Shown here piece after piece: positions 19,576-49,782 of a stretch of DNA of 64,000 nucleotides. A program made the translations under genes and the position numbers. The notes under the pieces are model-generated. The model did no database searches, was not told where the DNA came from, and saw nothing but the letters and a program-made list of their open reading frames with translations. The stretch lies in contig JACPXH010000007.1 in NCBI GenBank assembly GCA_016196625.1, positions 86,461-150,460 of the forward strand, written 5' to 3'. The first letter of the stretch is position 1. Each line of letters opens with the position of its first letter. The stretch comes from Candidatus Parcubacteria bacterium (GTDB taxonomy: Bacteria; Patescibacteriota; Minisyncoccia; JACPXH01).

Positions 19576-22500
19576 TCAGTTTTCTCCAACCACCACCGCT
19601 TCATCGGCGAGGAGCTTTAAATTCCCATCTTTATCTGACAGTCGCCCCTTCGCCAAAATGATGTTTTCTTCGTGCCAGACGTTCGGTGTCCTTTCTAAAA
19701 CCGATGGGAAGACGAGCACCTCGATTTGCTGGGTGAGATCTTGCACGCCCACGAAGAGCATGGGTGAGCCGCTCTTCGTGATCTTCTTGGCGATGTTAGA
19801 TACAATACCGCCGATTTTGACTGTTTGTCCAATGCGTAACCTGGTCAATTGATTGATGGGCGTTGTCACTTTTGACAGTCGGGCCGAATAATCGGTCAGC
19901 GGGTGTTCGGTCACGTACATGCCCAAGAGTTCCCGTTCCCACGCGAGGCGCTCTTTTTTAGCAGCGGGCGGCGCGTCAACGAGGCGGACTTTGGTCAAAG
20001 CGACATCGGGGGCATTCGCAAACAGGCTCGTTTGACCATTGGCCAGGCTACTTCGTTGGCTGCGGGCAAAGTTTTGGATGGTTTCGAGATTCGCGAGCAA
20101 TTGGTTGCGCTCGCCGAGTGAATCCATAGCCCCGGACTTGATCAGCGATTCGAGTGATTTGCGGTTGAGATCTCGTTGCGCGGTGCGCTCGACAAAATCA
20201 GTGATATCGCGATATCCGCCCTGCGCGGTGCGCTCGGCGATGATCGCTTCCACCACGTTCACGCCGACATTTTTGATGGCCGTGAGGCCAAATCTAACCG
20301 CCCCGCCCACCACCGAGAAGTGCACGCTTGATTCATTCACATCCGGCGGCAGTACCGCGAGCCCCATGTCACGCGCTTCTTGCACCAGGAACGCGGTGCG
20401 GTCAATGTCGCCTTCTTCCGAGGTCATGAGCGCGGCGATGAACTCTGACGGATAGTGCGCTTTGAGGTACGCTGTCCAGTAGCCAATAAGGGCGTAGCAG
20501 GCGGCGTGGGAACGGTTGAAGCCGTAGCGGGCAAAGGGTTCAAAATAGTCAAAGATTTGCTCGGCCAGTTTTTTGTCGATGGCGTTGGCGACGCAGCCTT
20601 CCACAAAACGTTTCCGTTCGTTGAGTAGCAGCTCTTTAATCTTTTTGCCGATGGCTTTACGCAGTGTGTCGGCTTGGCCGGGCGTGTAGCCGGCGAGGGC
20701 CTTGGCAATTTCCATGATCTGTTCTTGGTAGATGGCAATGCCGTAAGTGTTTTTCAAAATGGGCTCGAGCTTGGGGTGCCAATAGGAGATTTTTTTACGG
20801 CCATGCTTGCGGTCGATGAACTCCGGGATAAATTCCATGGGTCCGGGTCGGAAGAGTGAAACCATGGCGATAATGTCTTCGAGTTCGGTGGGTTTCAGAT
20901 CTTTGAGGTGGCGTTTCATGCCGTTGCTGTTGTGAACGACGAAGCTATTCGCAACGAAATTGTTGGCTGGAGCCCGCATCGCGATATCGTACGTTTGTGC
21001 TCTGCCCGCTGGCTTAATCTCCTTGACGGTCGTCCACATGAAGCCTCGAGGTATGGCCGGACATTCCCACCGAATCAGTTGTTTGTACTGGAGGGCGAGT
21101 TCAGCAAACTTTGTTGCGCTTATGAGAACGAAATTGTGTTGGGGGTACTGGGAGGTAAAGAGGCATATCTTCTCTTGGTCCAGCTCGTGCAGCCAGCCCT
21201 TGATTTCGTAGAATGTATTGTCGTGCGGAGTATAAAAGTCGGGCGTGTACGACATGAGCGTGCCGTCCGCGCGACGCAGCTCGAAGGTCTTCGGCTCGTA
21301 TTCGTACGCAGCGCGGTGGAGTTTTAGGATCCGTGCAAAGTCGGCCTCCCAGTTCGAGCGAACATAGTGGCCGAGATCTGGTCGGTATCCTCCTTTGCGG
21401 TGCGGTGCTCGCTGCCCATACATTGGATTGCCGGTTCCGCGGAACCTCTCGAAGGATTGACGTCGTAGCGCCTCCGCCCGCTCCTTTACGTGGAGCATCT
21501 CGTGCGTCCTCCCGGTCAACGCGCGGGAAATTTTTCTGCCGGTCTCACGGAGGGTGTCGTTGGTCTTTTTCGTCAGTCTGGTGTTCCACGGTTGCCCGCC
21601 ATTCGCAAAAAATATTTTCTGGGCCACGGAAATTCTTTGCCGTGAAAACGTCTTCGCGGGGTTCCGATAGACGCACGCTGAACAGCGGTAGCAGTAGGTA
21701 CTCTTTCCGTGTTTCTGTCCATTGATTTGGACGCCGCACCGTTGACAGGTATTCCAGATATCGTATTTCGCCCGCGTCTTCACCAATACATTGTCCCCCG
21801 GTTCAATGTCTGCGAGTTTTTTCCATCCATCGCTCGTGAGAAACATGTGTTCTGTGGTCGCTTTGATGTACCGGCGATCTTCGGTAATGAGTGCTGATAC
21901 GTTCTTCTCTCCGCGTGTGGCAACGGCAAGGATATCGTTATTGTGCACCGTCCCGGTGTCGAGGTAGACGGAACGCAAACTCTTCCTGTTAGATTTTTGG
22001 TACAGTTGTTCGATCGTCAGGTTCGAGACGGTAGTTTCTCCTGATATGCATTCGAACTGGAACACTCCGGTGGTCCGTCCTTCTTGAAAAAGCCGGTACG
22101 TCGCAGGATCGTCGAGGGGGATATCCTCGATGGTGAGATGTGCCTGCGGCTCGATGGCGTTCAATACGTGTTCGATGAGCGTAAGGTTTTTGAGCCCGAG
22201 GAAGTCAATTTTGAGCAGGCCCAAATCTTCGATCGAATGCATCTCATATTGCGTCACGATTGTAAGGTCGTCCTGACTGGCCCGCTGCAGGGGCACGTAC
22301 TCGGGGAGGGCGTCTTTGGTAATGACCACGCCACAGGCGTGGGTGGATGCATGGCGGGCAACGCCCTCAAGTTTGCGCGCGGCGTCTAAGAGGTGTTTGG
22401 CGTCTTCATCGTTTTCGTAGAGTTCCTTTAACTCCGGGACGACCGCGAGCGCTTGCTCGAGCTTCAACTGGAAGGGAACGAGCTTGGCGATTTGGTCGCA

Positions 22501-23859
22501 GAAACTGTAGGGCATACCGAGGGCGCGACCAGTATCCCTGACGGCAGCTCGGGCGGCCATGGTGCCGAACGTGATGATCTGCGCCACGTGGTCGCGGCCA
22601 TAGCGTTCCGCCACGTACTGCAGCACTTCGTTGCGACGATGGTCGGCAAAATCAAGGTCAATGTCGGGCATGGAAATGCGGTCGGGGTTGAGGAAGCGCT
22701 CGAAGAGCAAGCCGTACTTGAGCGGATCGATATCGGTGATGTTGAGCAGGTATGAAACGATGCTGCCGGCGGCTGACCCACGTCCCGGGCCCACCACAAT
22801 GCCCCGCGCTTTGGCCCAGTTCACGAAGTCTTGGACAATGAGGAAATACGAACCGAAGGCGGTTTTGGTGATTACCGCTAGCTCGTATTCAAGACGTTTT
22901 AATACCGCAGCGCTCACCCCACCATCGCCGTAGCGCTTGGGCAAACCGCGGTAGCACAGTTCTTTGAGAAAGGAATCCGCGCTGTAACCCGTCGGCACTT
23001 CAAAGTGGGGCAGGATGGGCGTGCCCAATTTGAGTTTCCAATCGCACTGTTCGGCAATTTTGACGGTGTTCGCGAGCGCTTCCGGCACATCCGCGAACGC
23101 TTGCGCAATTAGCTGCGGGTCTTTAAGCGAGAAGTCGTCGCCTTTGATGGTGAGGCGTTCTTCGTCATCAATCCGGGTGCCCGTTTGCACGGCCATCAAA
23201 ATGTCCTGGGCGTCGGCGTCTTCGGGCCGCACATAGTGGGTGTCATTGGTGACGACGAGGGGCAAATCAAGTTTTTTTGAAAATTGCTTTAAGGCTTCGT
23301 TCACTTTGGTCTGTTCGGGAATGTTGGGGTGGTGCTGGAGTTCGAGATAGAAATGCTCTTGGCCAAAAATGTTTACGTATTCATGGCAGAGCGTCTCGGC
23401 CCGTTCGAGGTTGCCGGCGAGAATGGCGCGGGGAATCTCCCCGGACAAACATGACGAAAACCCGATGAGTCCCTCGCTGAAGGCGGCGAGTGTGGCTTTG
23501 TCCACACGGGGTTTGTAGTAAAAGCCTTCGAGATGGGCGCGGGTTACGAGCCTGACGAGATTGCGGTAGCCGGTTTCGTTTTTGGCGATGACAAGCAGGT
23601 GGTAGCGGTTTTCTTTGATTCCGGCCGACCGGTCAGCCATCGCGCCGTCAGTGAGGTACAGTTCGCAGCCGATAAGTGGTTTGATGTCGCGCTTCTTCGC
23701 CTTTTGGTAGAATTCGACGGCACCATAGAGCACGCCGTGGTCGGTCAGGGCGAGCGCATCCATGCCGAGTTCTTTGGCTCGGTCGAGGAGTTCGTCAATC
23801 TTGCCCAGTCCATCGAGCAAGCTGTAATGAGAATGTACGTGTAGATGTACAAACTTCAT
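19576..23859 (-). CDS. dnaE: DNA polymerase III alpha subunit interrupted by one intein
   Basis: PHP domain MKFVHLHVHSHYSLLDG; GVFQFE|[intein]|SNGMKRHLKDLKPTELEDIIAMVSLFRPGP. Confidence 0.95.
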   Translation of the reverse strand: MKFVHLHVHSHYSLLDGLGKIDELLDRAKELGMDALALTDHGVLYGAVEFYQKAKKRDIKPLIGCELYLTDGAMADRSAGIKENRYHLLVIAKNETGYRNLVRLVTRAHLEGFYYKPRVDKATLAAFSEGLIGFSSCLSGEIPRAILAGNLERAETLCHEYVNIFGQEHFYLELQHHPNIPEQTKVNEALKQFSKKLDLPLVVTNDTHYVRPEDADAQDILMAVQTGTRIDDEERLTIKGDDFSLKDPQLIAQAFADVPEALANTVKIAEQCDWKLKLGTPILPHFEVPTGYSADSFLKELCYRGLPKRYGDGGVSAAVLKRLEYELAVITKTAFGSYFLIVQDFVNWAKARGIVVGPGRGSAAGSIVSYLLNITDIDPLKYGLLFERFLNPDRISMPDIDLDFADHRRNEVLQYVAERYGRDHVAQIITFGTMAARAAVRDTGRALGMPYSFCDQIAKLVPFQLKLEQALAVVPELKELYENDEDAKHLLDAARKLEGVARHASTHACGVVITKDALPEYVPLQRASQDDLTIVTQYEMHSIEDLGLLKIDFLGLKNLTLIEHVLNAIEPQAHLTIEDIPLDDPATYRLFQEGRTTGVFQFECISGETTVSNLTIEQLYQKSNRKSLRSVYLDTGTVHNNDILAVATRGEKNVSALITEDRRYIKATTEHMFLTSDGWKKLADIEPGDNVLVKTRAKYDIWNTCQRCGVQINGQKHGKSTYCYRCSACVYRNPAKTFSRQRISVAQKIFFANGGQPWNTRLTKKTNDTLRETGRKISRALTGRTHEMLHVKERAEALRRQSFERFRGTGNPMYGQRAPHRKGGYRPDLGHYVRSNWEADFARILKLHRAAYEYEPKTFELRRADGTLMSYTPDFYTPHDNTFYEIKGWLHELDQEKICLFTSQYPQHNFVLISATKFAELALQYKQLIRWECPAIPRGFMWTTVKEIKPAGRAQTYDIAMRAPANNFVANSFVVHNSNGMKRHLKDLKPTELEDIIAMVSLFRPGPMEFIPEFIDRKHGRKKISYWHPKLEPILKNTYGIAIYQEQIMEIAKALAGYTPGQADTLRKAIGKKIKELLLNERKRFVEGCVANAIDKKLAEQIFDYFEPFARYGFNRSHAACYALIGYWTAYLKAHYPSEFIAALMTSEEGDIDRTAFLVQEARDMGLAVLPPDVNESSVHFSVVGGAVRFGLTAIKNVGVNVVEAIIAERTAQGGYRDITDFVERTAQRDLNRKSLESLIKSGAMDSLGERNQLLANLETIQNFARSQRSSLANGQTSLFANAPDVALTKVRLVDAPPAAKKERLAWERELLGMYVTEHPLTDYSARLSKVTTPINQLTRLRIGQTVKIGGIVSNIAKKITKSGSPMLFVGVQDLTQQIEVLVFPSVLERTPNVWHEENIILAKGRLSDKDGNLKLLADEAVVVGEN
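20929..22050 (-). mobile_element. dnaE intein (374 aa) with non-LAGLIDADG nuclease-like insert (Cys4 zinc ribbon + PD-(D/E)xK-like TPDFY...EIKGW)
   Basis: starts CISGETTV after GVFQFE; ends VVHN|S; CQRCG...CYRCSAC; no LAGLIDADG motifs. Confidence 0.8.
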
Positions 23860-24299
23860 GGTTTTTTTGAGAGGACGCTTGCTCCGTTAAACCCCGAAGG
23901 GATTTGTTCGGGGTGTAGGTGAACGAATTTCGTAGCCATGTGTTTTGTTCGTGTTTTCCATTGAGGCCGGTCGCCGCCACTCCCTTAGCGATCGTTCGCT
24001 CGTCCAGCGACTCGCAATCAAGGAATGCTCCGGGGCGGCGCACTCGGCCTCGCGTCCCTCGATACGACTCGGGACAAGCTCGGTCGGCGCCGCCCGTTCG
24101 GAGCCAAGCAGTTGGCTCCTCACCCTCACCACCTGCCGAGCACTCACGCGGACGCGGTGAGTGCTCGGACCGTGCCAGGTGATTGCGGATGTCGCTTCGG
24201 GAGCGACGGCGACCGGCCTGAAGGCATATTTTCCTTCCATGCCGTTGCCGTGCGTACGTCCCTAGTTCCAATCAAAAGTTCTCCACCTATAATAAGGGG

Positions 24300-24926
24300 A
24301 TGGGGAGGATGAAACAAACTGTGCACAAACCGATGGACCTGCAGTATTTTCGCCGCGGCGTCAAACTCGTGGCTGGGCTTGATGAAGTGGGTAGGGGGGC
24401 GCTCGCCGGGCCCGTTGTGGCGTGCGCGGCGGTGTTTGACCAGCAAGGGATTCGGCAGCTTCACAGGCTCGGCGTGCGCGATTCGAAGCGCCTCGCGCCT
24501 CGAAGGCGCGAGGCGCTTTGCCCGCAGATCAAACAAGCGGCGCTGGCCGTAGCGTTCGGGTCATGTTCAGCCAGCATAATTGATCGAATCAACCCCCACC
24601 GCGCTACGCTCCTGGCATTGGGCCGGGCATTCCAAAATTTGAAAATGGCGCCCCACCACTGCTTGGTTGACGGCCCGCACGCGCCCAGGACTTCGGTGCC
24701 GACGACCCCGTTGGTTAAGGGTGATGATCGGTTCCTGGCGATTGCGGCGGCTTCAATTTTGGCGAAGGTCAGGCGCGACCGGCTCATGACCAGACGGCAC
24801 CGCAAGTTTCCGGCCTACAACTTCCCGCAGCACAAAGGGTATGGTACCAAGATGCACCAATCAGCAATCAGGAAGCACGGCCCGTCGGCAATGCATCGGT
24901 TGACGTTTGTGTGGCGTATCGGCTAA
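24300..24926 (+). CDS. rnhB: ribonuclease HII
   Basis: GLDEVGRGALAGPVV, DSKRL, IAAASILAKVRRD, GYG. Confidence 0.9.
   Translation: MGRMKQTVHKPMDLQYFRRGVKLVAGLDEVGRGALAGPVVACAAVFDQQGIRQLHRLGVRDSKRLAPRRREALCPQIKQAALAVAFGSCSASIIDRINPHRATLLALGRAFQNLKMAPHHCLVDGPHAPRTSVPTTPLVKGDDRFLAIAAASILAKVRRDRLMTRRHRKFPAYNFPQHKGYGTKMHQSAIRKHGPSAMHRLTFVWRIG
24875..24912 (+). repeat. 38-bp direct repeat copy A (3' end of rnhB)
   Basis: gcacggcccgtcggcaatgcatcggttgacgtttgtgt; 37/38 identical to 25643-25680. Confidence 0.8.
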
Positions 24927-24987
24927 GACGCGAGGAAAGAAATAGGGACAACGCGTTGACTGAAGCGATTCGGTTGATTTAGGATAT

Positions 24988-25233
24988 GTGCGCATGACTT
25001 ATCTCGGCCGCATCGAAATTAACCCAGGGAAACTGTTGGGCAAGCCGGTTATTAAAGGCACCAGAATTCCGGTGGCTTTGATTTTAAATTTGTTCGCTCG
25101 GGGATATACGATCGATAGGATTTTGGAAGCGTACCCCAATCTGAGGAGGGCAGACGTTCTGGCCGCCCTACGCTATTCCGAAGCGCGACTGAAACGCGAA
25201 TCCGTGGCGCCGCTTGCCGCATCGAGCCGATGA
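24988..25233 (+). CDS. DUF433-family antitoxin-like protein
   Basis: GKPVIKGTRIPVALILNLFARGYTIDRILEAYPNLRRADVLAAL. Confidence 0.7.
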   Translation: MRMTYLGRIEINPGKLLGKPVIKGTRIPVALILNLFARGYTIDRILEAYPNLRRADVLAALRYSEARLKRESVAPLAASSR

Positions 25234-25598
25234 AGCAGACCCGGCTTCTTTTGGACGCCAATATTTCCCCAGAGACCGCAATGTTCTTGCGGTCTCTTGG
25301 TTTTGACGTTGAGAGCTTGATCGAAGAAGGTTTGGGCGGTTTAGATGACGTTGCGGTAGTGGAGCGGGCCCGCAAAACACGTCGAGTGCTCATCACCTTT
25401 GATCTCGATTTCGGCGAACTCTACTACTTCTCTGCGCGTCGAGCGTTCTCCATCATCATTCTTCGACTAGACGATCAGCGCGTTGAAAATGTGAATGTCG
25501 CACTGCAGAAGTTTTTCGTGAAGTACCGCAGGTTGTTTGGCGGCAAAAAGAAGCGCTTAGCTGTCGTGAGTGATTCTGATCTTCGGATTGTGGAGTGA
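25230..25598 (+). CDS. DUF5615 / PIN-like toxin partner of DUF433
   Basis: LLLDANISPETAMFLRSLGFDV...RVLITFDLDF; 4-bp overlap with upstream gene. Confidence 0.7.
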   Translation: MKQTRLLLDANISPETAMFLRSLGFDVESLIEEGLGGLDDVAVVERARKTRRVLITFDLDFGELYYFSARRAFSIIILRLDDQRVENVNVALQKFFVKYRRLFGGKKKRLAVVSDSDLRIVE

Positions 25599-25642
25599 GT
25601 ATGACTATTGGCGCTTCACGCCCACCGAGCCGCACTTACTCA

Positions 25643-25680
25643 GCACGGCCCGTCGTCAATGCATCGGTTGACGTTTGTGT
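25643..25680 (+). repeat. 38-bp direct repeat copy B (downstream of TA pair)
   Basis: gcacggcccgtcgtcaatgcatcggttgacgtttgtgt. Confidence 0.8.
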
Positions 25681-25775
25681 AGAAAGCGAAGTGGGCGAAA
25701 GAAGAGTGAATCCCCAGGCGGGCTTGCCCGCCTGGGGGTCTTCTTGCAGTTTTCTGCGCCGGTTTGCCATCGGCG

Positions 25776-26273
25776 CTACCCTACCTCGTCAAACTCGATT
25801 CGAAGCGGCCACGCTTGGGTGACCGTTCGGGTGCGTCCCGTGGTACCAACTCGCGATGTTGTCTCGGTGAGCTTGCTGACCAAGGTGAGTTTCCAGGTAG
25901 CGTCGCCACCGGTGCCGAAGACAATCCCTTTGTCACGCAGAGCCCGCGCAGCTTCTCTGATAGCCGCGAGCGCGGGTTCAGTCGTCTTGCTCCGCGCACC
26001 GATCCCGAGTTGCACGGTGTAGTCGAACCACCTTAGTCCTTCAGCGTCCATTTTTCCTTCCGGCCCAGCCCTGAAGTGCTGGAGGTTTTCACGCACGAGC
26101 GGAGGCAAATGCGGTTCGTCTATGGGGTGGACGACGTCCTGCCAGAAAGAGGGAAGTTGCAGGTAGCAGGGATCGATGATCGCCAGCGTGCCCGAGTCTA
26201 CGCTTACCTCACCGATGTCCATCCGTTCTTCCCAGGAGCGGGAGTCAACGACGGTCGGTCGCCTCTTACCCAT
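25776..26273 (-). CDS. hypothetical protein (165 aa)
   Basis: GGAGGAAACCCG-ATG start; terminator hairpin ccccaggcgggc/gcccgcctgggg at 25706-25733. Confidence 0.5.
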   Translation of the reverse strand: MGKRRPTVVDSRSWEERMDIGEVSVDSGTLAIIDPCYLQLPSFWQDVVHPIDEPHLPPLVRENLQHFRAGPEGKMDAEGLRWFDYTVQLGIGARSKTTEPALAAIREAARALRDKGIVFGTGGDATWKLTLVSKLTETTSRVGTTGRTRTVTQAWPLRIEFDEVG

Positions 26274-26491
26274 CGGGTTTCCTCCATATGACGGGTTGGG
26301 TTGGCTTGTTTCAAGGGTACTTGGACCTATTTCGTCCGATTGAATAACTGTACTAGATTACCCTATATTAGTCAAGTTTATCCATCTAAAGCTTAAGGGG
26401 TGGATGCATCCGATCGGTGCTGTTGCGGATAAAGGTTTTTTCTGCTATCGTTACTTTTGAACTTTGAGTTTTGCCTTTTGAGTTTTCTGTC

Positions 26492-26740
26492 ATGGGAACC
26501 CCCACCCAAAAACACACCAAATCCCGTCGCGACAAGCGGCGGTTCCAATTGCGCCTTTCGCATCAGCAGCTCTCGACCTGTCCCAAGTGCGGCCGGCCGA
26601 GGCTTGGGCACACGGCATGTTTATACTGTGGCACGTACAAGGGTCGGGAGGTGGTGGACGTTTTGAAACGGCTGTCGAAGAAAGAGAAAAAGGCCCGGGC
26701 AAAGGAGCTGGCGGCGAAAGAACCGGCAGCTGCGAAATAA
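26492..26740 (+). CDS. rpmF: 50S ribosomal protein L32
   Basis: MGTPTQKHTKSRRDKRR...CPKCG...CLYCGTYKG. Confidence 0.85.
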   Translation: MGTPTQKHTKSRRDKRRFQLRLSHQQLSTCPKCGRPRLGHTACLYCGTYKGREVVDVLKRLSKKEKKARAKELAAKEPAAAK

Positions 26741-26925
26741 CAAATGCCAAAGCTCAAATGTCAAATCAAGTTCAAAATGACGCCGCGCGTCATCCTGAGC
26801 GCAGCGAAGGATCTTGAGATCCTTCGGTCGTCCGCCGACTGGCGGACTCCCCCAGGATGACAATCGAGTTGTCACTTTGAGTTTTGGGTTTGATTTAAAA
26901 TTTGGATTTTGACATTTGACATTCC
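26741..26925. repeat. palindromic AT-rich repeat, family A copy (MITE-like), rpmF-nusB spacer
   Basis: caaatgccaaagctcaaatgtcaaatcaag...gtcactttgagttttgggtttgattt...gacatttgacattcc with nested GC hairpins in centre. Confidence 0.7.
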
Positions 26926-28282: not shown

Positions 28283-28410
28283 CGCTTCGCGGAAGTCCAA
28301 ATACCAAAGCTCAAATGACAAATCAAATCCAAAGCCCAAAGCCGTTTTTGACATTTGGATTTTGAGCTTGATTTGAACTTTGGATTTTGTCATTTGGGTT
28401 TTTGGGCAGA
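28283..28410. repeat. palindromic repeat family A copy, rnc-rpsP spacer
   Basis: gccgcttcgcggaagtccaaataccaaagctcaaatgacaaatcaaatccaaag...ctttggattttgtcatttgggtttttgg. Confidence 0.7.
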
Positions 28411-30742: not shown

Positions 30743-31748
30743 AGAGCGTGGAGATCGCCTATGTAGATTATCTCGGACAACCTTGGCCTCAGAGCGTATC
30801 GACGTTCGGGCACCGTACGACCGCGAAGGCGTCTAGCCGAGATCCACAAGTAAATAGTTCGGTGAATCTCGAAGATGGACTTCTTCGCGGTTGTATTTTC
30901 CGAGACGCTGACTGACGCGGACAATTGAGATTGCTTCGCTGTGCTCGCAATGACGAATGCAGCCGGTGTCCCTTGAAAATTGAATAGGTAAGGTAAGTAA
31001 AAATCCAGTTATTCCTTGTTGTCCCGATCTATGGGTGTTCGGCAGCGCGCTTGGCGCGATGGCCGGACATCTTTTGAGAGTTTGATCCTAGCTCAGGATG
31101 AACGCTGGCGGCGTGGATAAGCAATGCAAGTCGTGCGAGGCCTTTTCTGAAGGAGTTGCGATTACATCAAGACGACAGATGAAATGGTCGAGCGGCGAAC
31201 GGCTTAGTAACACGTAGGAATCTGCCCCGGAGTCGGGCATAACTCGTCGAAAGGCGGGCTAATACCCGATGGTATCAGCATTGCAATTTTGATCTTTAGA
31301 ACCTTCTAGTGTCGACAAGCGCCTAGATGCTGGAAGTTGCGGCGAAGGGAAGGGAGCGCAGACTCCCTTGGTGGCGCGCACAAGTACCCCTTGACCGGTT
31401 AACCCGGGGGCCCTTCGCCTACTAATTTCTAGAGTTCAAAATTGCGATGCTGATTAAAGATGCAAATCACTCCGGGAGGAGCCTGCGGGCTATCAGCTTG
31501 TTGGCGGGGTAACGGCCCACCAAGGCTATGACGGCTAGGGGGTGTGAGAGCATGGCCCCCAAGATGGGTACTGAGACACGGACCTGACACCTACGGGTGG
31601 CTGCAGGCGAGAATATTCGGCAATGGGCGAAAGCCTGACCGAGCGACGCCGCGTGAAGGATGAAGCCCTGCGGGGTGTAAACTTCTTTTGACCGGGAGGA
31701 AGCCGCAAGGCTGACTGTACCGGTAGAATAAGGGGCTGCTAACCTCGT

Positions 31749-32101
31749 GCCAGCCCCGCACCAAACATTTGGTGGCGGGGCGACCAATGTTAGCAATACA
31801 AAACGAATCTGGTATTACCGAAAGCGCGACCTGGAGTCGCAAGGCTCCTTGAATAACTCGGCTCATATGCTGGGAACTCTGTGAGTGGCTGCAATCGTTC
31901 AACGATGCTCCAGAGCAATCAGCAGGGAAGTCGCCCCGCCCTTGGCGAGGTTGACCCCTCAGAGACTGATCCCTATCGGCGAAGTGCCGAGACGGGTGAG
32001 AACGGATGCGTGTGTATCTGTTCAGACGCCGAGCTCCGCCAATTGGCGGATGGTGGGATAGTCCATGTTCCGAAGCCAAATCCAAATGTTTTGGTAACGG
32101 G
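31749..32101 (+). mobile_element. 16S group I intron 1 (353 nt, ORF-less) near E. coli position ~516
   Basis: splits gtgccagcagc(a)gcggtaatac; contains ggctcatatgctggg and tcagagactgatc (R-like) blocks; ends with G. Confidence 0.65.
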
Positions 32102-32373
32102 GCCAGCAGCAGCGGTAATACGAGGGCCCCGAGCGTTATCCGGAATCACTGGGCGTAAAGAGTCTGTAGGGGGTCTGGTTAGTCGGGTGTGAAATTTCCG
32201 CGCTCAACGCGGAGCCCGCATCCGAAACGGCCAGACTCGAGGACGTGAGAGGCGAGTGGAATGCACGGTGTAGGGGTGAAATCCGTTGATATCGTGCAGA
32301 ACACCGAAGGCGAAGGCAGCTCGCTGGCGCGTTCCTGACCCTGAGAGACGAAAGCGTGGGGAGTGAATGGGAT

Positions 32374-33349
32374 CGGATTTGGTCCCCTCGTGCGGCGACG
32401 CACGAGCGCAAATCTGGCTATATGCTGGAACATCCGAGTATCTCACCGTACTGCGTTCAGGGCAGTAACAATCTGTGAGTGCGGATTATCAGCAGGAAAC
32501 CGTGGTAAAATGATACTATGGGATCCTCAGAGACTATACGCCGGATACCTCAAATGAATAAGGAACTCGCCATTCTGTTAGGACTTCTCTACACAGATGG
32601 TTGTGTTTCCCCAAAAGGACAAAGTTGGAGAATTTATTTCGCCGTAAAATCGCAAGTGTTAGTCAACCTTTTTCGGGATTGCATGGTAGATGTTTTCGCC
32701 CTCGAGTCTAATCGAGTGCGGATTGGCGTTACGCAAGATGGTTTAACGAGAGCCATCGTGAACTCGAAAGAGGTGGGCAACTGGTTGGTAGGCAGGTTTG
32801 GCACATTCCGAACGTTAAAGTTCGCGAATGGCCGATTGCCTCCAGCAAGACTGCCGGTGTCGCTGTTGAAAAGCACGCGACATGTAGCAGATTTCTTGCG
32901 AATTGCGTTTAGCTGTGATGGAGGCGTGAGTTTCTATTCTGCAAAACGCGACGGCAGAAATGGCGGCACCCGATGGTTAATTCGAACAGTCTTTCTCGCT
33001 TGCACACATCCGCAGTTGCGGAGAGATTATCTGAAGTTACTTTCTCAACTTGGCATCCGAGTACGAGAAGTCGCCAAAGATGGCAAGCTGAAGATGGAAA
33101 CAGAACGAGATATTCGTCTGTTTCAAGAGCGGATCGGTTTTACCGCCGGTGTTCGAGTAACGGGCAATTCCAAATTCTGGAATGGCTACGAAAAAAATGA
33201 AGTCTTGCGACTTCTGATCGCGTCGTATGGCCGGCCATCAAAGATCTACCAACTGCCTAAATTTAATGAGGTAATGATATAGTCCGAACTTCATGGCGAC
33301 ATGAAGAGACAAGTAAGACTGGGTAAATCTTGTCCGTTGTAACAACAAG
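32374..33349 (+). mobile_element. 16S group I intron 2 (976 nt) encoding LAGLIDADG endonuclease, at ~E. coli 788/789
   Basis: exon1 ends ...gggaU; exon2 tagatacccc; ggctatatgctggaacatccg, tcagagactatacgcc (R element); terminal G. Confidence 0.7.
32518..33282 (+). CDS. LAGLIDADG homing endonuclease (double-motif) inside 16S intron 2
   Basis: LAILLGLLYTDGCVS and FLRIAFSCDGGVS. Confidence 0.8.
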   Translation: MGSSETIRRIPQMNKELAILLGLLYTDGCVSPKGQSWRIYFAVKSQVLVNLFRDCMVDVFALESNRVRIGVTQDGLTRAIVNSKEVGNWLVGRFGTFRTLKFANGRLPPARLPVSLLKSTRHVADFLRIAFSCDGGVSFYSAKRDGRNGGTRWLIRTVFLACTHPQLRRDYLKLLSQLGIRVREVAKDGKLKMETERDIRLFQERIGFTAGVRVTGNSKFWNGYEKNEVLRLLIASYGRPSKIYQLPKFNEVMI

Positions 33350-33450
33350 TAGATACCCCAGTAATCCACGCCCTAAACGATGAGGACTTGTTGTGTAGAG
33401 TATCGACCCTCTACGTGGCGAAGCTAACGCGTTAAGTCCTCCGCCTGGGA

Positions 33451-33482
<32 letters not shown>

Positions 33483-33493
33483 AGACGGGAGTT

Positions 33494-33528
<35 letters not shown>

Positions 33529-33624
33529 GTAAGCGAGGAACCTTACCAGGGCTTGACATGTTCGAGTAAGGCCGCCGAAAGGTGGTCCCTCCCACAAGGA
33601 CCCGAACACAGGTGCTGCATGGCT

Positions 33625-34429
33625 ACATCCGGATACGGATGGATGGCCGGTCCGGTGGCAACATCGGATAACAATAACCAGCCCAAAACGGTGGAGCCCT
33701 CCTGGTTTTCGGAGTAAAATGGAAGCCAGTGGGTAATACCGTGGGAAGCAAGTTTATATTCAAGACAGCCGAAGACTACTACGCACTGGGTCTTTGGCTG
33801 GCGGATGGGTACTGGCGTTCAAGCTCAGTCGGCTTAACTTCGGTTGACTCTCGATTGATAGAGCGGTTTGTTCGGTTTTTACGGCGGGCGGCTCCGAGCC
33901 ATCCGCTGAAGTACCGAACGTATCACCCACTCGATGGTCGAGGGAAACGTAGACGTGTGGCGACACAAGTGTACGTAAACAGTCGGGCGTTGACCCGAAT
34001 GTTCACTGCCACGAAAACCGGAGTATTGTTCGTCCCATCGCGAAACGTTCCTGCGTATTTGGCAGGGCGGATAGATGGTGATGGGCACGTAGACGCCAAA
34101 CATCGATCGGGCATTCGGATCGCGTATGGGAACGCGTTCGATGCTCGGAGGGATCGTCGGTTGTTCGGCGCAGCCAATGTGAGCTTGTACCGGTATTCAG
34201 CTGCGAGGACGATGGTCCTTTACTTGAGGAAGCATTATCGAGAGCGCATCGAACCCGCGGTTCGAAAATTCTCGATGAAACTTGCCCCGTAGAGACTGAA
34301 TTCCGAATCAAAGCGGAATGAGAATTGTCGATCTTCGACGATTCAGACGGTTGGCATCCAGCCCCAGTTTTTCAAACTGGAGCTGGATGAAGGTATAGTC
34401 CATGCTCGTGGAAACACGGGAATATCATG
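33625..34429 (+). mobile_element. 16S group I intron 3 (805 nt) encoding LAGLIDADG endonuclease, after GCATGGCU (~E. coli 1057)
   Basis: exon junction gcatggct|gtcgtcagc; gaaggtatagtccatgc (S element); ORF begins inside conserved ataccgtgggaag block. Confidence 0.7.
33729..34292 (+). CDS. LAGLIDADG homing endonuclease inside 16S intron 3
   Basis: YALGLWLADGYW and YLAGRIDGDGHVD. Confidence 0.8.
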   Translation: MGNTVGSKFIFKTAEDYYALGLWLADGYWRSSSVGLTSVDSRLIERFVRFLRRAAPSHPLKYRTYHPLDGRGKRRRVATQVYVNSRALTRMFTATKTGVLFVPSRNVPAYLAGRIDGDGHVDAKHRSGIRIAYGNAFDARRDRRLFGAANVSLYRYSAARTMVLYLRKHYRERIEPAVRKFSMKLAP

Positions 34430-34528
34430 GTCGTCAGCTTGTGGCGTGAGTTGCTCCGTTCAGTCGGGTAACAAGCGCAACCCCTATGTGCTGTTACAGG
34501 TGTCAGCGCAAACTGCCTGCTTCAAGCA

Positions 34529-34564
<36 letters not shown>

Positions 34565-35144
34565 CTTTGATGCCCTGGGCGACACACGTGCTACAATGGC
34601 CGGTACAATGGGACGCCAACCCGTAAGGGGGAGCAAATCCCACCAAAACCGGTCTCAGTCCGGATTGAGGTCTGCAACCCGACCTCATGAAGCTGGAATC
34701 GCTAGTAATCGCGGATCAGCCACGCCGCGGTGAATACGTTCCCGAACTTTGTACTCACCGCCCGTCAGGCCAGTGAAGGCGGTAATGCCGGAAATCTGGG
34801 TTTGTCCCGGATGAAGGCAGGATCGCTGACAAGGGCTAAGTCGTAACAAGGCATCGGTAGCGGAAGCTGTCGATGGATCATCTCCTTTCTAGGGAGTTCT
34901 TACCTTCTACGGTTAAGAACCGCTAGTAAGGTCAAGTGGTCGGTGCTGCGTTTGCTGCCACAAGCACGAATGCGGCGGGAGTTGGCCGATGTCCTCAACC
35001 ATCGGCTGCTCGGCCCCGAAGCGTCATTCGGGCGGTCGGGACAACGAGGAAAAACTGGAATAGCAAACCGCGCGCCCTCTTGAGGGGGCGCGCGGTTGTG
35101 TTTTATGATGCGAGGGCGCTTGGATTGCGGCGTGCAGCTAAAGC

Positions 35145-42914: not shown

Positions 42915-43186
42915 GTGTGCGTTGCGAGGTAAACGGGATCGTAAAATAAAGCGTATGGTGGATGCCTTGACACCAAACGGCGATGAAGGACGTGGCGTGG
43001 CTGCGATAAGCTGCGGGGAGCTGCCGAGCAAGCTTTGATCCGCAGATGTCCGAATGGGGAAACCCAGCATGGCAAACCCATGTTACCCGCCTAAGTTTTT
43101 GGGCCTATTGAGAAGGGTCTAAAAACTTAGGCGGGAGCGCACCCGGGGAAGTGAAACATCTCAGTACCCGGAGGAACAGAAAACAA

Positions 43187-43285
43187 TGCTAGCTTTCTAG
43201 CTTTTAGCTTCCTAGCTTTTTAGGCGCGAGTGAACTGTCGTTCGTTCCTAGGAAGCTAAGAAGCTAATCAGCTAAGAAGCTAGCC
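43187..43285. repeat. agct-rich palindromic expansion inside 23S (family B)
   Basis: tgctagctttctagcttttagcttcctagc...gctaagaagctaatcagctaagaagctagc; related copy at 52316-52385. Confidence 0.6.
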
Positions 43286-43330
43286 CATTCCCTTAGTAGC
43301 GGCGAGCGAACCGGGAAAAGCCCAAACCAG

Positions 43331-43420
43331 CCCGAAGCTTCGCTTCGGGAATGTCTAATGTCGAATCCGTTTCGTCATTCGTTAATTAGGAATTAGTCAT
43401 TTCCGCAGCGGAGCTGCGGG
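43331..43420. repeat. family A palindromic insertion in 23S
   Basis: gaagcttcgcttcgggaatgtctaatgtcgaatccgtttcgtcattcg...tcatttccgcagcggagctgcgg. Confidence 0.65.
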
Positions 43421-43694
43421 TTGGGGTTGTAAGAGTATATCGCTTCTTTTCTTTCATCGTATCCCCCGCCTCCATTCGGATGGCGGATTAGGGGTACGGA
43501 GAAAGTTGAGAAAAGAAGAACACCTTGGAGCCGCGTTAGCCGAACACCCCTGGAACGGGTGGCCAGAGAGCATAATAGCTGCGTAGGCGAAAACGTTGGC
43601 TCGCTTCTCGATATAAATCTTGAGTACTGCCCCGCCCGGCTGCGGGGTAGGAAGCAGGGGCGACTACGCCCCAAGGCTAAATACGTTTGGTGAT

Positions 43695-43731
<37 letters not shown>

Positions 43732-43789
43732 CAGCCCGGTGAGGGCGGTGAAATAGTACCTGAAACCATACGCTGACAAGGAGTCAACG

Positions 43790-43889
43790 CCGGTGCTTCG
43801 CACCGGGAATGTCAAATGTCAAAGCTCAAATGTCAAAAGCGATTTGGCATTTGGATTTAGTCATTTGGATTTCCGATGCGGAGCATCGG
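43790..43889. repeat. family A palindromic insertion in 23S
   Basis: ccggtgcttcgcaccgggaatgtcaaatgtcaaagctcaaatgtcaaa...catttggatttccgatgcggagcatcgg. Confidence 0.7.
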
Positions 43890-44450
43890 TTATGGCGTGC
43901 CTATTGAAGAATGAGCCAACGACTTTATCTCGTCCGCAAGTTTAACCCCGTTAACGGGGGGAGGCACAGGGAAACCGAGTCCGAATAGGGCGTGGCGATC
44001 CTTTCGTACTATGCTCATCTTTCGATGAGCAGGGTGCGAATTGATCGCTAGCGGGCGGGTTAAGACCCGAAGCCAGGCGAGCTACCCATGGCCAGGGTGA
44101 ACTTCGGTGATAAACCGGAGGGAGGCCCGAACCCATTGGCCGTGCAATACCATGGGATGAGCTGTGGGTAGAAGTGAAAAGCTAATCGAGCCTGGGAATA
44201 GCTGGTTTTCTCCGAAATAGTTTTAGGACTAGCCTCGAGCGTTCACGATCGGAGGTAGAGCACTGGATGGATACGGCTGCCGATGAGGTACTGCATCCAA
44301 TCAAACTCCGAATGCCGATCGTTCAAGAGCTCGGGAGTCAGACGATGGGGGCGAAGCTCCGTCGTCGAGAGGGAAACAGCCCGTGATCGTCACGTAAGGT
44401 CCCTAAATCTCCACTCAGTGCAAGTAAGGAAGTGTCCCGCCTTAGACAGA

Positions 44451-44494
<44 letters not shown>

Positions 44495-44577
44495 CAGCTC
44501 ACTGTTCTATGGCAACTACGGCGGGGCGCGCCGAAAATGTATCGGGGCTTAAGTGGAGTACCGAACGTACGGATCAG

Positions 44578-44727
44578 CCGATGCTTCGCATCGGGAATGT
44601 CAAATGCCAAAGCTCAAATGTCAAGTCAAATCCAAAGTTCAAATGCCAAAGTCGTTTGGTTTTTGGATTTTGATCATTGATTTGTCATTTGGATTTTGAA
44701 ATTTGGATTTCCGGTGCGGAGCACCGG
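44578..44727. repeat. family A palindromic insertion in 23S (longest copy)
   Basis: ccgatgcttcgcatcgggaatgtcaaatgccaaagctcaaatgtcaagtcaaatccaaag...tttggatttccggtgcggagcaccgg. Confidence 0.7.
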
Positions 44728-45271
44728 TTGGTGGTAGGAGAACGTTCCCTGTGCAGTGAAGCCGCATCCGCGAGGAGCGGTGGAGCGCAGGGAAGTGCAA
44801 ATGTTGGCATGAGTAACCGCAAGTCCGGTGAGAGTCCGGACCACCGCAAGTCTAAGGTTTCCTTGGCAATGGCAATCATCCAAGGGTGAGGCGGGCCTAA
44901 GGCGATGGCGAAAGCCGGAGCTGATGGACAGCCGGTTAATATTCCGGCCCCGCCCGAACGACCAACGGGGCGACGGCGCAGCGTAGATCGAGCGTGTTAT
45001 TGGATTTGCGTCCCCGAGCCAGCGCGCCTTTCAGGCAAATCCGGAAGGCTGCCTTTGATGGCGAGCGCACGCACAGGGGTAAGGTTGACCGCAAGGTCGG
45101 CCAATTCGATCGAAACAGCGTCCCAGAAAACCCCCTAGGATTAATCGTTCGGGCGTCCGTACCGCAAAACCGACACAGGTAGACGAGGCGAGTAGCCTCA
45201 GGTGAACGGGTGAGTCCTCGTTAAGGAACTCGGCAAAACAGCGGTCGTAAGTTCGCGATAAGACCTCCCTG

Positions 45272-45359
45272 CCCGATGCTTCGCATCGGGAATGTCAAAT
45301 TTCAAAGCTCAAATGTCAAAAACGATTTGGCATTTGGATTTCCGCTGCGGAGCAGCGGG
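45272..45359. repeat. family A palindromic insertion in 23S
   Basis: cccgatgcttcgcatcgggaatgtcaaatttcaaagctcaaatgtcaaaaacgatttggcatttggatttccgctgcggagcagcgg. Confidence 0.7.
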
Positions 45360-45559
45360 CGGGGCGCAGCGAAAGACCCCTAGCGACTGTTTATCAAAAA
45401 CACAGGTTCCTGCTAACTCGTAAGAGGATGTATAGGAGCTGACGCCTGACCAGTGCTGGAACGTTAACGGTTGCGGTGCTTGTTGCTCTTAGGAGCAGTG
45501 AGTGCCAAGGCCCGAAGCGCCAGTGAACGTCCGCCCTAACTATAAGGGTGTTAAAGTAG

Positions 45560-45875
45560 TGGAATTTCACGTCGCGGTGCCGCAAGGCAACGTAGCGGCT
45601 TTGCTGCTTTAACTGAAAATCTGGCTATATGCGGGAAAGTCTTGAAAGCCGTGAGTGCGACACAGTAGTTCCTGTAGCCATCTGGTATGGAACAAACTGG
45701 GAGCAAAAATCTCACGGATGAGACAATCCGCAGGAAAGATCCGAAAGGAAATCCTCAGACACTAATACGCCAGACCGACCACATGAATTCTGATGTGGCT
45801 GGAAGATAGAGTGCGATCTTCATGGCGACATGAAGTTGCTATGCGGGTGATCGCATAGCGCATAACAGTCATAAG
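45560..45875 (+). mobile_element. 23S group I intron 1 (~316 nt, ORF-less) in GGUAG|CGAAAUUCC region (~E. coli 1910); boundaries +/- few nt
   Basis: exon resumes cgaaattccttggcaggtaag; ggctatatgcggg, tcagacactaatacgcc, ggaagatagagtgcg blocks. Confidence 0.55.
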
Positions 45876-45908
45876 CGAAATTCCTTGGCAGGTAAGAAAG
45901 ATGCCTGC

Positions 45909-46172
45909 TCCGGCGGAAACGTCGGAGAAAAACCCGGCTTATAACGGTGAAGCCCGACGCGGTTGCAGTTGACAAGAGACTGCGTGAACCGCGGGGTGAT
46001 ACCGTGGGAAGCCGCCCGCCGAAGTGCGGGTTGGCCCCGTAACGACTTGTTCCGAGAGGAACAGAGCCATCGCGAGATATGTGGATGGCTAACACGCCGG
46101 CCCCTCCTTCGGGAGGGTGAAGATATAGTCTATGCCACCAGGAATGGTGGGCCACATGAAGTTCTGTCCCGC
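45909..46172 (+). mobile_element. 23S group I intron 2 (~264 nt, ORF-less) splitting CCUGC|ACGAAUGGCGUAA; boundaries approximate
   Basis: shared blocks ggcttataacggtgaagc, ataccgtgggaag, ccccgtaacgact, gaagatatagtctatgcc. Confidence 0.5.
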
Positions 46173-46472
46173 ATGAAAGGCGTAACGACTGGGGGACTGT
46201 CTCAACGAGGAGCCCGGTGAAAATGCAATGCCGGTGAAGACGCCGGCTGCCTGCAACTAGACGAAAAGACCCCGGGAGCTTTACTATAGCTTGGCATTGG
46301 CCATGTGTTGGGCATGCGTAGCATAGATGGGAGGCGTTGAAGGCTGGATTTCGGTTCAGCTGGAGCCGACAGTGAAATACCATTCTTGTTCGATGCTTGG
46401 TCTAACCGGATCCGCAAAACGGATTTGGGACCGTGCCTGGTGGGTAGTTTGAGTGGGGCGCTCTCCTCAAAG

Positions 46473-47449
46473 CCGGTTGATCTCCTTCGGTCAATCGGCG
46501 GGGGACATCTCGAAACCCGAGATGAAACATTCGGCTATATGCTGGAACATCCGTGGTACTCGCGGGTAGTGAAATTTCACTGAAAATCTCGCGGGTGGCA
46601 CCCATAGGTCGGCGGACAACCAGCAGGCAACCCGCACTCGAAATATCGAGCGCGGGGAGTCCTCAACGACTATACGCCGAACCGAGCACGCATAAGTGCT
46701 CGGATGATATAGTCTGATCTTCTGGGCAACCAGAAGCATTGCTGCTCGCATCGTTCACGGTGCGGCAGCGAGACCCAAGATATGCATTCCAACAGGATTG
46801 AGAAGTACAAGCAGAAGCTGAAACTCACGAAACGCCAGAGGCAGATAGTGGTGGGAGCGGTTCTCGGCGACGGGCATCTGGAGACACAAGATGCCGGGAG
46901 AACCTATCGGCTGAAAATCGAACATTCTGTCGGACAGCGCGCTTATGTTGATTGGTTGTACGATCAGTTGAAACCGCTGGTAGGTACTTTACCCAAGGCG
47001 CGTGTCAGGACGAGAACGTTTCCCAGTGGATATGTTAGTACGGGAGTCAGTTACGGTTTTGCGACGTACTCCCTCGGAGCCCTGCGCTTCTATGCGCAGC
47101 AGTTCTATCGAGGGGGAGAGAAGATCGTTCCTCGATTGATCGGGAAATTGTTGACGCCGACATCCATTGCCATCTGGTACTTGGATGACGGCTCGGTCAA
47201 ATCGAATCGACACCGAACCTTCGTCATCCATACGTATGGATACGCACGGCGCGATCTGCAGCGTTTGCAAAGCGCGCTTGAGCAGTTCGGTATCAGGACC
47301 ACCTTACACACGCAAGTGCGGCTGTCCGGCCGATATCTGCGGTTGTATGTGGTGTCGGAATCGGCGGCGACATTCAGGGCGCTTGTCGAACCGATCATTA
47401 GAGCAATTCCGCAAATGCATTACAAGTTGGGGAACAAATTGCCTAAAAG
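46473..47449 (+). mobile_element. 23S group I intron 3 (~977 nt) with LAGLIDADG endonuclease, splitting CUCAAAG|GUAACGGAGGAGC
   Basis: cggctatatgctggaacatccg; ctcaacgactatacgcc; gatgatatagtctgatc; ORF stop codon overlaps exon 2 start. Confidence 0.6.
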
Positions 47450-47453
47450 GTAA
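46782..47453 (+). CDS. LAGLIDADG homing endonuclease (double motif) in 23S intron 3
   Basis: VVGAVLGDGHL and IAIWYLDDGSV. Confidence 0.8.
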   Translation: MHSNRIEKYKQKLKLTKRQRQIVVGAVLGDGHLETQDAGRTYRLKIEHSVGQRAYVDWLYDQLKPLVGTLPKARVRTRTFPSGYVSTGVSYGFATYSLGALRFYAQQFYRGGEKIVPRLIGKLLTPTSIAIWYLDDGSVKSNRHRTFVIHTYGYARRDLQRLQSALEQFGIRTTLHTQVRLSGRYLRLYVVSESAATFRALVEPIIRAIPQMHYKLGNKLPKR

Positions 47454-47629
47454 CGGAGGAGCTTATAAGGTCGGCTAGCTCCGGATGGACATCGGAGCGG
47501 TCCTGTAAAGGGATAAGCCGGCTTTACTGCAAGGCCAACGCGCCGCGCAGTCGCGAAAGCGGAACTTAGTGATCCGATCGTACATTGTAGAATGGCGAAA
47601 GCTCAACGGATAAAAGTTACCCCGGGGAT

Positions 47630-47949
47630 AGACCCTAAAAGGGTTGTTGTCTAATCCCACAGCAATGTGGGAAGCGTACGGCTTATAACGGTGAACCAGA
47701 GGCGGTCTTTCCTCGCTGCTTGCGAGGTTTTCGACCTCTTAGGAATACCGTGGGAAGCTGCCCGCCTCAATTTTGCGAAACAAAAGTTGGGCGGGTTAGC
47801 CCCGTAACGACTGATCTGAAAGGAGAGGTCCGATGCACTATCGTGCTCGGACAACACGCCGTCTCCTATCATTGAAAGACCACGCCATGGTCTGCGAAGA
47901 CCTAAAGCGGGTGATAGGATGAAGATATAGTCTAATCCGTAAAGGATTG
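47630..47949 (+). mobile_element. 23S group I intron 4 (320 nt, ORF-less) at peptidyl-transferase centre GGGGAU|AACAGGCUG (U2449/A2450 E. coli numbering)
   Basis: exon1 ...cccggggat; exon2 aacaggctggtagtgcccaagag; terminal G; gggtgataggatgaagatatagtctaatcc. Confidence 0.7.
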
Positions 47950-48001
47950 AACAGGCTGGTAGTGCCCAAGAGCCCCTATCGACGGCACTGTTCGGCACCT
48001 T

Positions 48002-48460: not shown

Positions 48461-48500
48461 TACGATGTCGGCTCGCCACATCCTGGAGGTGAAGCAGCTT

Positions 48501-48532
<32 letters not shown>

Positions 48533-49750: not shown

Positions 49751-49782
<32 letters not shown>

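Follow-up and report, generated by a model that had tools for sequence, protein, structure and literature searches.

A toxin–antitoxin cassette inserted at the 3′ end of rnhB in a Candidatus Parcubacteria genome

We describe a compact, predicted toxin–antitoxin (TA) operon inserted into the 3′ end of rnhB, the gene for ribonuclease HII (RNase HII), in a Candidatus Parcubacteria bacterium. The stretch analysed, referred to here as the window, comprises 64,000 nucleotides (GenBank assembly GCA_016196625.1, contig JACPXH010000007.1, positions 86,461 to 150,460), and coordinates given without a locus name are positions in it; loci used for comparison are designated L002 to L026. The working rnhB ends in a copy of the gene tail on the near side of the cassette, and the native tail, with its terminator, lies 768 bp further downstream. 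In a sister lineage an unrelated TA pair occupies the same nucleotide position, and we consider this reuse of the site the most interesting result.

Results

The target gene, rnhB (24309..24926, plus strand; Pfam RNase_HII, E=2.5e-40, profile positions 1-196 of 199), has a host-derived body, and its product is 100% identical to P0001, annotated as ribonuclease HII of Candidatus Parcubacteria. Near its end lies a 38-mer, GCACGGCCCGTCGGCAATGCATCGGTTGACGTTTGTGT (24875-24912, plus strand), a second copy of which is found at 25643-25680 (plus strand) with 37 of 38 positions identical (G to T at position 14) and a spacing of 768 bp. When up to three mismatches were allowed, the 38-mer had exactly two matches in the 64-kb window and none in 100 dinucleotide shuffles; no third copy of its 31-nt centre was found in the window at up to eight mismatches. 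A repeat search showed that the duplicated homology is wider than 38 nt, extending over 58 nt at 84% identity and reaching upstream to 24855. A preliminary description of this DNA, made from its letters alone, had reported the repeat and its single mismatch, and both hold. It had also taken the repeat for the last 38 nt of this rnhB, which is incorrect: the open reading frame (ORF) continues for 14 nt past the repeat (TGG CGT ATC GGC TAA, that is, WRIG and a stop) to end at 24926, and the 38 nt correspond to the ancestral end of the gene, as relatives end in ...LTFV*.

Four relatives lack the cassette. L002 and L003 (GCA_016204195.1 and GCA_964522735.1), L004 (GCA_964373035.1) and L005 (GCA_016186535.1) each contain one copy of the repeat core within the same gene order, thrS-dnaE-rnhB-...-rpmF-nusB-rnc. 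After removal of 768 bp (24913-25680), the window aligns to L005 without gaps, with 97 of 100 positions identical across the junction. L005 is a clean empty site, and the cassette is an insertion. Relatives with a single copy of the repeat had been anticipated in the preliminary description. Two independent Logan assemblies (L023 and L024) reproduce 24034-25605 at 100% identity, and equivalent junction types occur in other lineages; the structure of repeat and cassette is, therefore, not an assembly artefact.

The two copies of the tail differ in a way that indicates which of them is native. Four close relatives of the rnhB product (P0002-P0005, 72-85% identical) end in ...HGPS[AS][MI]HRLTFV, one of them with a further T. 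The functional rnhB of the window ends in ...MHQSAIRKHGPSAMHRLTFV-WRIG-TAA, its final codons lying in the upstream, attL-like copy of the repeat. Beyond the cassette, at 25620..25682 (plus strand), we found an rnhB pseudogene fragment of 20 codons and a stop, in frame as AHRAALTQHGPSSMHRLTFV-TAG, which matches the C-termini of P0002-P0005. This fragment, which contains the downstream, attR-like copy of the repeat, retains the clade-typical HRAAL motif that the functional window rnhB has lost, and to the right of 25645 the identity between the window and the empty site of L005 is 97%. A terminator hairpin follows (25711..25738, plus strand; fold -19.5 kcal/mol, z=-5.2); the same hairpin is located directly after rnhB in L005 and after the displaced rnhB fragment in L006 and L012, two cassette-bearing loci described below. 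Since the downstream copy shares the ...LTFV* ending of the relatives and has the L005 terminator behind it, it is the native rnhB tail, displaced, with the working gene using the cassette-side copy. The native terminator is now placed to end the TA operon as well.

In L013, which carries the same cassette, rnhB ends in LTFV, GTG TAA, and then aligns with the window from 24924 onward. Because the alignment resumes at the window TAA, we infer, from reading the two sequences, that WRIG is a 12-nt in-frame insertion (TGGCGTATCGGC, 24912..24923, plus strand) of the window lineage only, placed just before the cassette-side TAA (24924-24926). The cassette-side stop codons differ from the native TAG or TGA: the window and L013 use TAA, and in L012 one extra codon precedes the TAG. 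In the empty-site relative L004 (6661-6684), a 12-nt tandem duplication (GTTTGTATGAAA, two copies) covers the last rnhB codons and the stop. The WRIG insertion, the extra codon of L012 and the duplication of L004 mark the end of rnhB as an indel-prone junction. For annotation this means that the WRIG codons belong to the cassette side and are absent from the rnhB of every relative, and that a 63-nt rnhB pseudogene fragment has gone unannotated.

Between the repeats lie two adjacent, co-directional genes, antitoxin first, which overlap by ATGA, in agreement with the preliminary description of an overlapping DUF433 and DUF5615 PIN-like pair. The antitoxin gene (24994..25233, plus strand) encodes a VapB-like DNA-binding protein of 79 amino acids (DUF433/COG2442; PF04255, E=2.6e-23, 82 bits against a cut-off of 23.6), which also matches PDB 2GA1 (DUF433, E=6e-4) and is 100% identical to P0207. 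The toxin gene (25230..25598, plus strand) encodes a DUF5615 PIN-like nuclease of 122 amino acids (PF18480, E=1.2e-18, 67.4 bits against a cut-off of 23.8), which also weakly matches Mut7-C; its residues D9, D40, D58, D60 and E63 are invariant in 29 homologues. The pair is predicted to be a type II TA operon of the PIN-COG2442 (DUF433/DUF5615) class, of the VapBC type. Makarova et al. predicted the PIN-COG2442 pair to be a TA system (PMC2701414), and vapBC10 of Synechocystis was validated as one (PMC3834315). By analogy with vapBC10, the toxin would arrest growth and the antitoxin would neutralise it. The likeness consists in a small DUF433 antitoxin gene upstream of, and overlapping, a small PIN-like toxin gene.

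The operon appears to bring its own promoter. A sigma-70-like promoter is predicted at 24956..24985 (plus strand; TTGACT, 18 nt, TAGGAT) from a consensus match only, and L013 has similar boxes at the same place (TTGACC, 17 nt, TAGGAT). The predicted promoter ends 8 nt before the antitoxin ATG, and the mRNA may have little or no leader. The G+C content of the cassette is 8-10 points below that of its flanks. Inside the toxin gene (25271..25297, plus strand) lies a perfect 11-bp hairpin, AGAGACCGCAA-N5-TTGCGGTCTCT, followed by a T-rich tract, TGGTTTTGA (13 predicted pairs). It corresponds to codons 14-23 (motif PETAxFLRSLGFD) and its nucleotide sequence is conserved in each of the seven distinct homologous cassettes (those of the window, L006, L007/L008, L009, L013, L021 and L022), AT-rich genomes included. 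The codons ACC, CGG and TCT of the hairpin are invariant in 8 of 8 sequences, and one compensatory change was observed (GCAG/CTGC in L021). Speculatively, the hairpin may be an internal attenuator or a regulatory RNA hairpin. No RNA gene or riboswitch in the region matched Rfam at the gathering score.

Two other lineages carry the same cassette and together show both of its junctions. L013 (antitoxin 87% identical) shows the left junction. L006 (toxin 78% identical) shows the right one, where the toxin gene is followed by the rnhB fragment HRLAIAQHGPSTIHRLTFV*, the terminator, a gene for a 165-amino-acid protein and rpmF. Between the toxin stop and the rnhB-like fragment, the window and L006 have homologous sequence, so that this type of cassette, with its appended fragment, has one origin. 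We compared the divergence of the TA genes with that of rnhB; a partial antitoxin comparison of the window with L006 is out of frame and was left out of the figures for synonymous divergence (dS). Between lineages the TA genes had a dS of 0.72-1.59 and a ratio of non-synonymous to synonymous divergence (dN/dS) of 0.08-0.15 (0.11 for the antitoxin against L013, 0.08-0.15 for the toxin), and rnhB a dS of 0.89-1.11 and a dN/dS of 0.13-0.17. As the dS of the cassette equals that of rnhB, the cassette is old rather than a recent arrival; it is under purifying selection and has been resident for roughly the time since the lineages separated. Distances between lineages are about equal whether or not they carry the cassette, and it must, thus, have been precisely lost, or moved between lineages, at least once.

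More distant DUF433/DUF5615 cassettes also occur at other loci (L007-L011, L021 and L022), and no flanking repeats were found there. The duplication is, therefore, a property of the rnhB site and not of the cassette family. The same 907-bp block (the DUF433/DUF5615 operon and an ORF of 59-64 amino acids; 96.8% identity) is present at L007 1-907 and L008 148-1053, in two contexts, before recO in one contig and before the gene for the DNA polymerase III delta subunit in the other. At L021 5001-5264 and L022 1156-1380, homologous DUF5615 toxins are truncated by early stops (87 and 74 amino acids) beside intact antitoxins, and these look like decaying cassettes.

The rnhB site itself has received a second, unrelated cassette. 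In L012 (rnhB 72% identical), rnhB ends in ...LTFVT-TAG and is followed by a gene for an AbrB/MazE-type antitoxin (PF04014, E=7.5e-8; TIGR01439, E=1.1e-8) and an 88-amino-acid ORF with weak similarity to ParE/RelE (PF05016, E=0.006; PDB 1WMI, E=0.6). The rnhB tail is repeated here too, at 701-731 and 1361-1391 of the locus (29 of 31 positions, spacing 660 bp). The second copy starts 5 nt past the stop of the 88-amino-acid ORF and ends in ...TFI-TAG, after which comes the same terminator as in L006. For both unrelated cassettes the right edge of the duplication falls exactly at the rnhB stop codon, and both are compact, with a promoter region of about 45-80 nt after the left repeat and a toxin stop 5-21 nt before the rnhB-like fragment. 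That two random decays of large islands should have given such compact cassettes is unlikely; compactness and the common stop-codon boundary weigh against random decay and against chance. The L012 cassette at the same position argues for a targeted site, with the rnhB tail as a recurrent landing site.

A locus away from rnhB bears on the same subject. L025 1-3527 (ENA ERZ27254767; also L026) contains three TA operons in tandem: a 69-amino-acid gene paired with PIN_3, a DUF433/DUF5615 pair, and an MNT-type nucleotidyltransferase together with a HEPN-like NTase_sub_bind protein. In front of each operon lies a direct repeat of 125-220 nt (683-901, 1607-1745 and 2445-2630), for which no RNA family match and no fold signal were found; its substitution pattern hints at derivation from the 3′ end of a coding sequence. 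L025 may be a second case of TA cassettes accreting at a repeated site.

The near-identity of the two repeats in the window has to be read against the coding function of the sequence. The 38-mer encodes the conserved motif GPSxxHRxTF and is identical at 33-36 of 38 positions among all functional rnhB alleles of relatives; thus, the match between the window copies does not by itself mark the core of an attachment (att) site. Indeed, among all copies compared the repeat is the best-conserved DNA stretch of the neighbourhood (33-37/38), and a 24-base skeleton of it matches rnhB even in unrelated bacteria (JGI metagenomes). Coding constraint would be expected to produce this identity and explains much of it, so that the identity says little for an att core. 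Just upstream of the core, 22 nt agree at 12 of 22 positions between the two window copies, against 37 of 38 in the core, and they are equally variable among functional alleles (8-14/22 for distant pairs). In the displaced window fragment this stretch is identical to every rnhB allele at 12-14 of 22 positions, within the range of functional alleles.

The locus also bears signs of exchange between lineages. The window is about 90% identical to L005 over 25645-26455, compared with 70-80% in the flanks (rnhB, dnaE and rpmF). The gene within this block (25776-26273, minus strand), which encodes a 165-amino-acid protein, has a dS of 0.21 to L005, compared with 0.89 for rnhB. The low value implies that the gene was recently exchanged between lineages, as part of a block exchanged with an L005-like lineage, and the downstream repeat lies at the edge of this block. 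In L006, the 22 nt upstream of the core in the fragment are identical at 22 of 22 positions to the functional allele of L004, which suggests that conversion or exchange took place recently. Such homologous processes are active at the locus and obscure where an original crossover would have lain. Among relatives, the rnhB-rpmF slot varies in content, which encode a 91-amino-acid Zn-ribbon protein or proteins of 178, 164/165 or 146 amino acids; its genes are unrelated in L002/L003, L004 and L012. The 165-amino-acid protein of the window is nearly an orphan, with 6 clusters among 1.8 billion representatives, and its matches are repeat units in proteins of 993-4614 amino acids.

Discussion

The architecture calls for a reciprocal exchange in which the chromosomal rnhB tail recombined with a similar sequence brought in from outside. 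We propose that a compact, self-promoted TA operon would have integrated into the 3′ end of rnhB by conservative reciprocal recombination, the partners being the chromosomal tail and an rnhB-tail-like sequence on the incoming DNA. As a result, the working gene ends in the cassette-side copy (24875-24926), and the native tail (25620-25682) and its terminator are displaced 768 bp downstream. The cassette may be a fully decayed integrative element, like the cis-mobilizable elements discussed below, or may have been moved by a recombinase acting in trans. It has diverged in step with host genes and is kept by purifying selection, plausibly through addiction. The rnhB tail would be a reusable attachment site, as an unrelated TA pair is found at the same nucleotide position in a sister lineage. 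Site-specific integration, by a recombinase that has been lost or acts in trans, is the explanation we favour, and we give it about an even chance of being right. We infer both the circular intermediate and the kind of recombinase that such integration would involve. The preliminary description had proposed integration that regenerates the 3′ end of the gene. The insertion, the reading frame kept through the upstream copy and the displaced native end bear this out; the crossover itself may have been site-specific or homologous, and the near-identity of the 38-mer is weak evidence for an att core.

Several observations weigh against site-specific integration. We found no integrase or recombinase domain in the cassette or in 30 other ORFs of the window, to which the search was confined. 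The viral collection searched, which samples the clade poorly, gave 0 matches and hence no attP-bearing contig, and the contigs of SRR12113416 and SRR12113417, identical in sequence to the window, contained the integrated form only and no excised or empty form. The dS of the cassette equals that of its host and so does not point to recent movement. On its left side, the limit of the duplication differs among loci, at about 63 nt in the window and L006 and about 36-40 nt in L012, which a single fixed crossover point does not predict. A dyad in the core, CGTCAA-N8-TTGACG, has the geometry of a tyrosine-recombinase core; it is not conserved, however, being perfect only in the downstream window copy and in L002. 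Finally, the core showed no significant secondary structure in either repeat, on either strand (z +0.5 to +1.0 compared with shuffles). The earlier proposal of a mobile TA cassette stands in part: the unrelated TA cassette at the same site in L012 argues for a targeted site, the cassette of the window is old, and its mobility is putative, neither a recombinase nor an attP-bearing element having been found in the searches above.

Candidates for the missing machinery did not hold up. The 165-amino-acid neighbour is not a plausible recombinase, as it has no Pfam or NCBIfam match, is nearly an orphan and is present without the cassette in L005. The 178-amino-acid protein of L004 has a faint match to Phage_int_M (E=0.004) that is below the cut-off, and it is not homologous to the 165-amino-acid neighbour in the window. 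A parent integrative and conjugative element (ICE), integrative and mobilizable element (IME) or prophage at the same att site was not found either, with 0 matches in the viral scan and only unrelated rnhB in JGI metagenomes, both of which sample the clade poorly. A scan of a genome collection with rnhB gave a single, uninformative match of 45% identity in Pseudomonadales. An insertion sequence, a miniature inverted-repeat transposable element (MITE) or another transposon can be set aside: the cassette ends have no terminal inverted repeats, and the duplication, of 38-63 nt and non-uniform identity, is not a short uniform target-site duplication. An integron attC or another single-strand hairpin site was rejected because the repeat has no fold signal and no GTTRRRY.

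Clearly less probable than site-specific integration is integration driven by homology without a dedicated recombinase. Here a small circle, or the allele of a relative, carrying an rnhB-tail fragment beside the TA operon would have entered by a Campbell-type single crossover of the RecA kind, and the cassette would later have spread or been lost between lineages by allelic exchange through the flanks. The latter process resembles that of the Neisseria 'minimal mobile elements', in which a slot between conserved genes holds varied whole-gene inserts and is subject to homologous exchange in the flanks; they fit the rnhB-rpmF slot and differ in lacking a flanking gene-end duplication. This explanation has several points in its favour: the repeat is the best-conserved stretch of the neighbourhood, the left limit of high identity varies by lineage and cassette as homology-dependent crossovers would, the rnhB-rpmF slot has different genes in different relatives, the block of about 90% identity to L005 has its breakpoint at the downstream repeat, the L006 fragment matches the functional L004 allele at 22/22, and no recombinase was found in the cassette or the 30 window ORFs. 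It leaves unexplained, however, how an rnhB tail was first joined to two unrelated TA operons, each ending exactly at the stop codon. In addition, RecA handles imperfect homology of 31-63 bp poorly, and allelic replacement alone does not create duplications.

A one-off illegitimate event without any targeting is unlikely. In this case template switching, or homology-facilitated illegitimate recombination, would have placed a copy of a TA operon after rnhB and re-copied the last ~63 nt of the gene, and the L012 cassette would be a later replacement within the pre-existing duplication. The indel-prone junction, with its 12-nt WRIG insertion, extra codon in L012 and GTTTGTATGAAA duplication in L004, would agree with this, as would the strong terminator hairpin just downstream and the homologous toxin-to-fragment junction in the window and L006, which fits a single origin of that cassette type. 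Two unrelated cassettes with different duplication lengths, however, share the same right boundary at the rnhB stop, and a duplication from a single template should have started uniform, yet the copies agree at 12/22 upstream and 37/38 in the core. The last alternative, that the feature is not real and reflects chance, a family of dispersed repeats or a chimeric assembly, has in its favour only that the core is a conserved coding motif and can practically be discarded, given no chance matches, two copies only, agreeing independent assemblies and equivalent junctions in three other lineages. A common dispersed repeat, named in the preliminary description as the finding that would overturn it, is further contradicted by the JGI metagenomes, where the degenerate core was found only in single-copy, unrelated rnhB, and by the viral contigs, with 0 matches.

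In structure, the closest known case is e14 (and phage 21) in icd of E. coli, with its icdC fragment (PMC13626634). There, too, an element occupies the 3′ end of a protein-coding housekeeping gene, which stays functional by using the tail on the element side; the native C-terminal fragment persists as a pseudogene beyond the element, and the copies differ by substitutions. e14 differs in being ~15 kb long, with its own integrase and SOS-induced excision, whereas the element described here is 0.77 kb, consists of a TA operon only, and has no recombinase found and no excision seen. In content, the closest cases are cis-mobilizable elements (CIMEs) and the dif modules of Acinetobacter. CIMEs keep attL and attR and have lost the genes for integration and transfer (PMC5704250). 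They are decayed relatives of known ICEs or IMEs of the same species, whereas no parent is known here, and simple decay does not predict two independent cassettes trimmed exactly to a TA operon.

Acinetobacter dif modules (PMC6449649 and PMC13141974) are likewise small, without a recombinase, often composed of a TA pair only and bounded by short sites, and they are thought to be moved in trans by the host XerC/XerD. They differ in having 28-bp XerC-XerD pdif sites in inverse orientation, on plasmids, and not direct repeats of a chromosomal gene tail. No dif-like site is recognisable here, and the core dyad is not conserved. Integron cassettes, including the TA cassettes of chromosomal integrons, are similar as compact single-operon cassettes at a fixed platform; in the present case the repeat is a gene tail that lacks both an attC-type hairpin and a GTTRRRY core, and the window ORFs scanned include no IntI.

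Members of the Candidate Phyla Radiation have tiny genomes with few recognised mobile elements, and their gain of accessory genes is poorly understood. A keyword search limited to an open-access library brought up neither rnhB as an attachment site nor cassettes of this kind in the radiation. The locus shows that a housekeeping-gene tail serves as a repeated landing site for minimal TA cassettes, and that lineages sharing only 75-80% identity exchange the DNA next to it. Were a trans-acting recombinase at work, the locus would represent a new cassette-capture system; were it homologous recombination, conserved coding motifs would act as anchors for gene flow in uncultivated bacteria. A bolder version, which we regard as rather improbable, is that the rnhB tail is a dedicated capture site at which a recombinase of the host, or one acting in trans, inserts and exchanges recombinase-less TA minicassettes of 0.66-0.77 kb, with L025 as a second example at another target. 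The 3′ end of a housekeeping gene would then form the base of a cassette platform in the chromosome, much as integrons and Acinetobacter dif modules do in their settings.

Other features of the window

The spacer between dnaE and rnhB contains one copy of a GC-rich repeat of ~140 nt (23997-24133), the other copy of which is found in inverted orientation at 63120-63258 (79% identical). The spacer copy lies within a stretch that L005 lacks and that has a 31-nt inverted repeat at its borders (23961-23991 and 24192-24222); a small mobile repeat or MITE is a possible reading. Upstream, dnaE (19576-23859) contains an intein; the L005 homologue lacks it and has 1058 amino acids instead of 1427. The 16S and 23S rRNA genes (31075-34886 and 42949-49888) are split by group I introns (Rfam RF00028 at 32364-33306 and 46469-46736), and LAGLIDADG ORFs are located at 32518-34292, 46782-47453 and 49054-49533. 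Intron-split rRNA genes with LAGLIDADG ORFs, and the dnaE intein, are features typical of the Candidate Phyla Radiation. Intergenic direct repeats built around CAAAGCTCAAATGTCAAA form a family (26732-26776, 28289-28333, 43804-43848, 44592-44636 and 45287-45331), and in the rRNA region these repeats are accompanied by GC-clamped hairpins (CCGATGCTTCGCATCGG).

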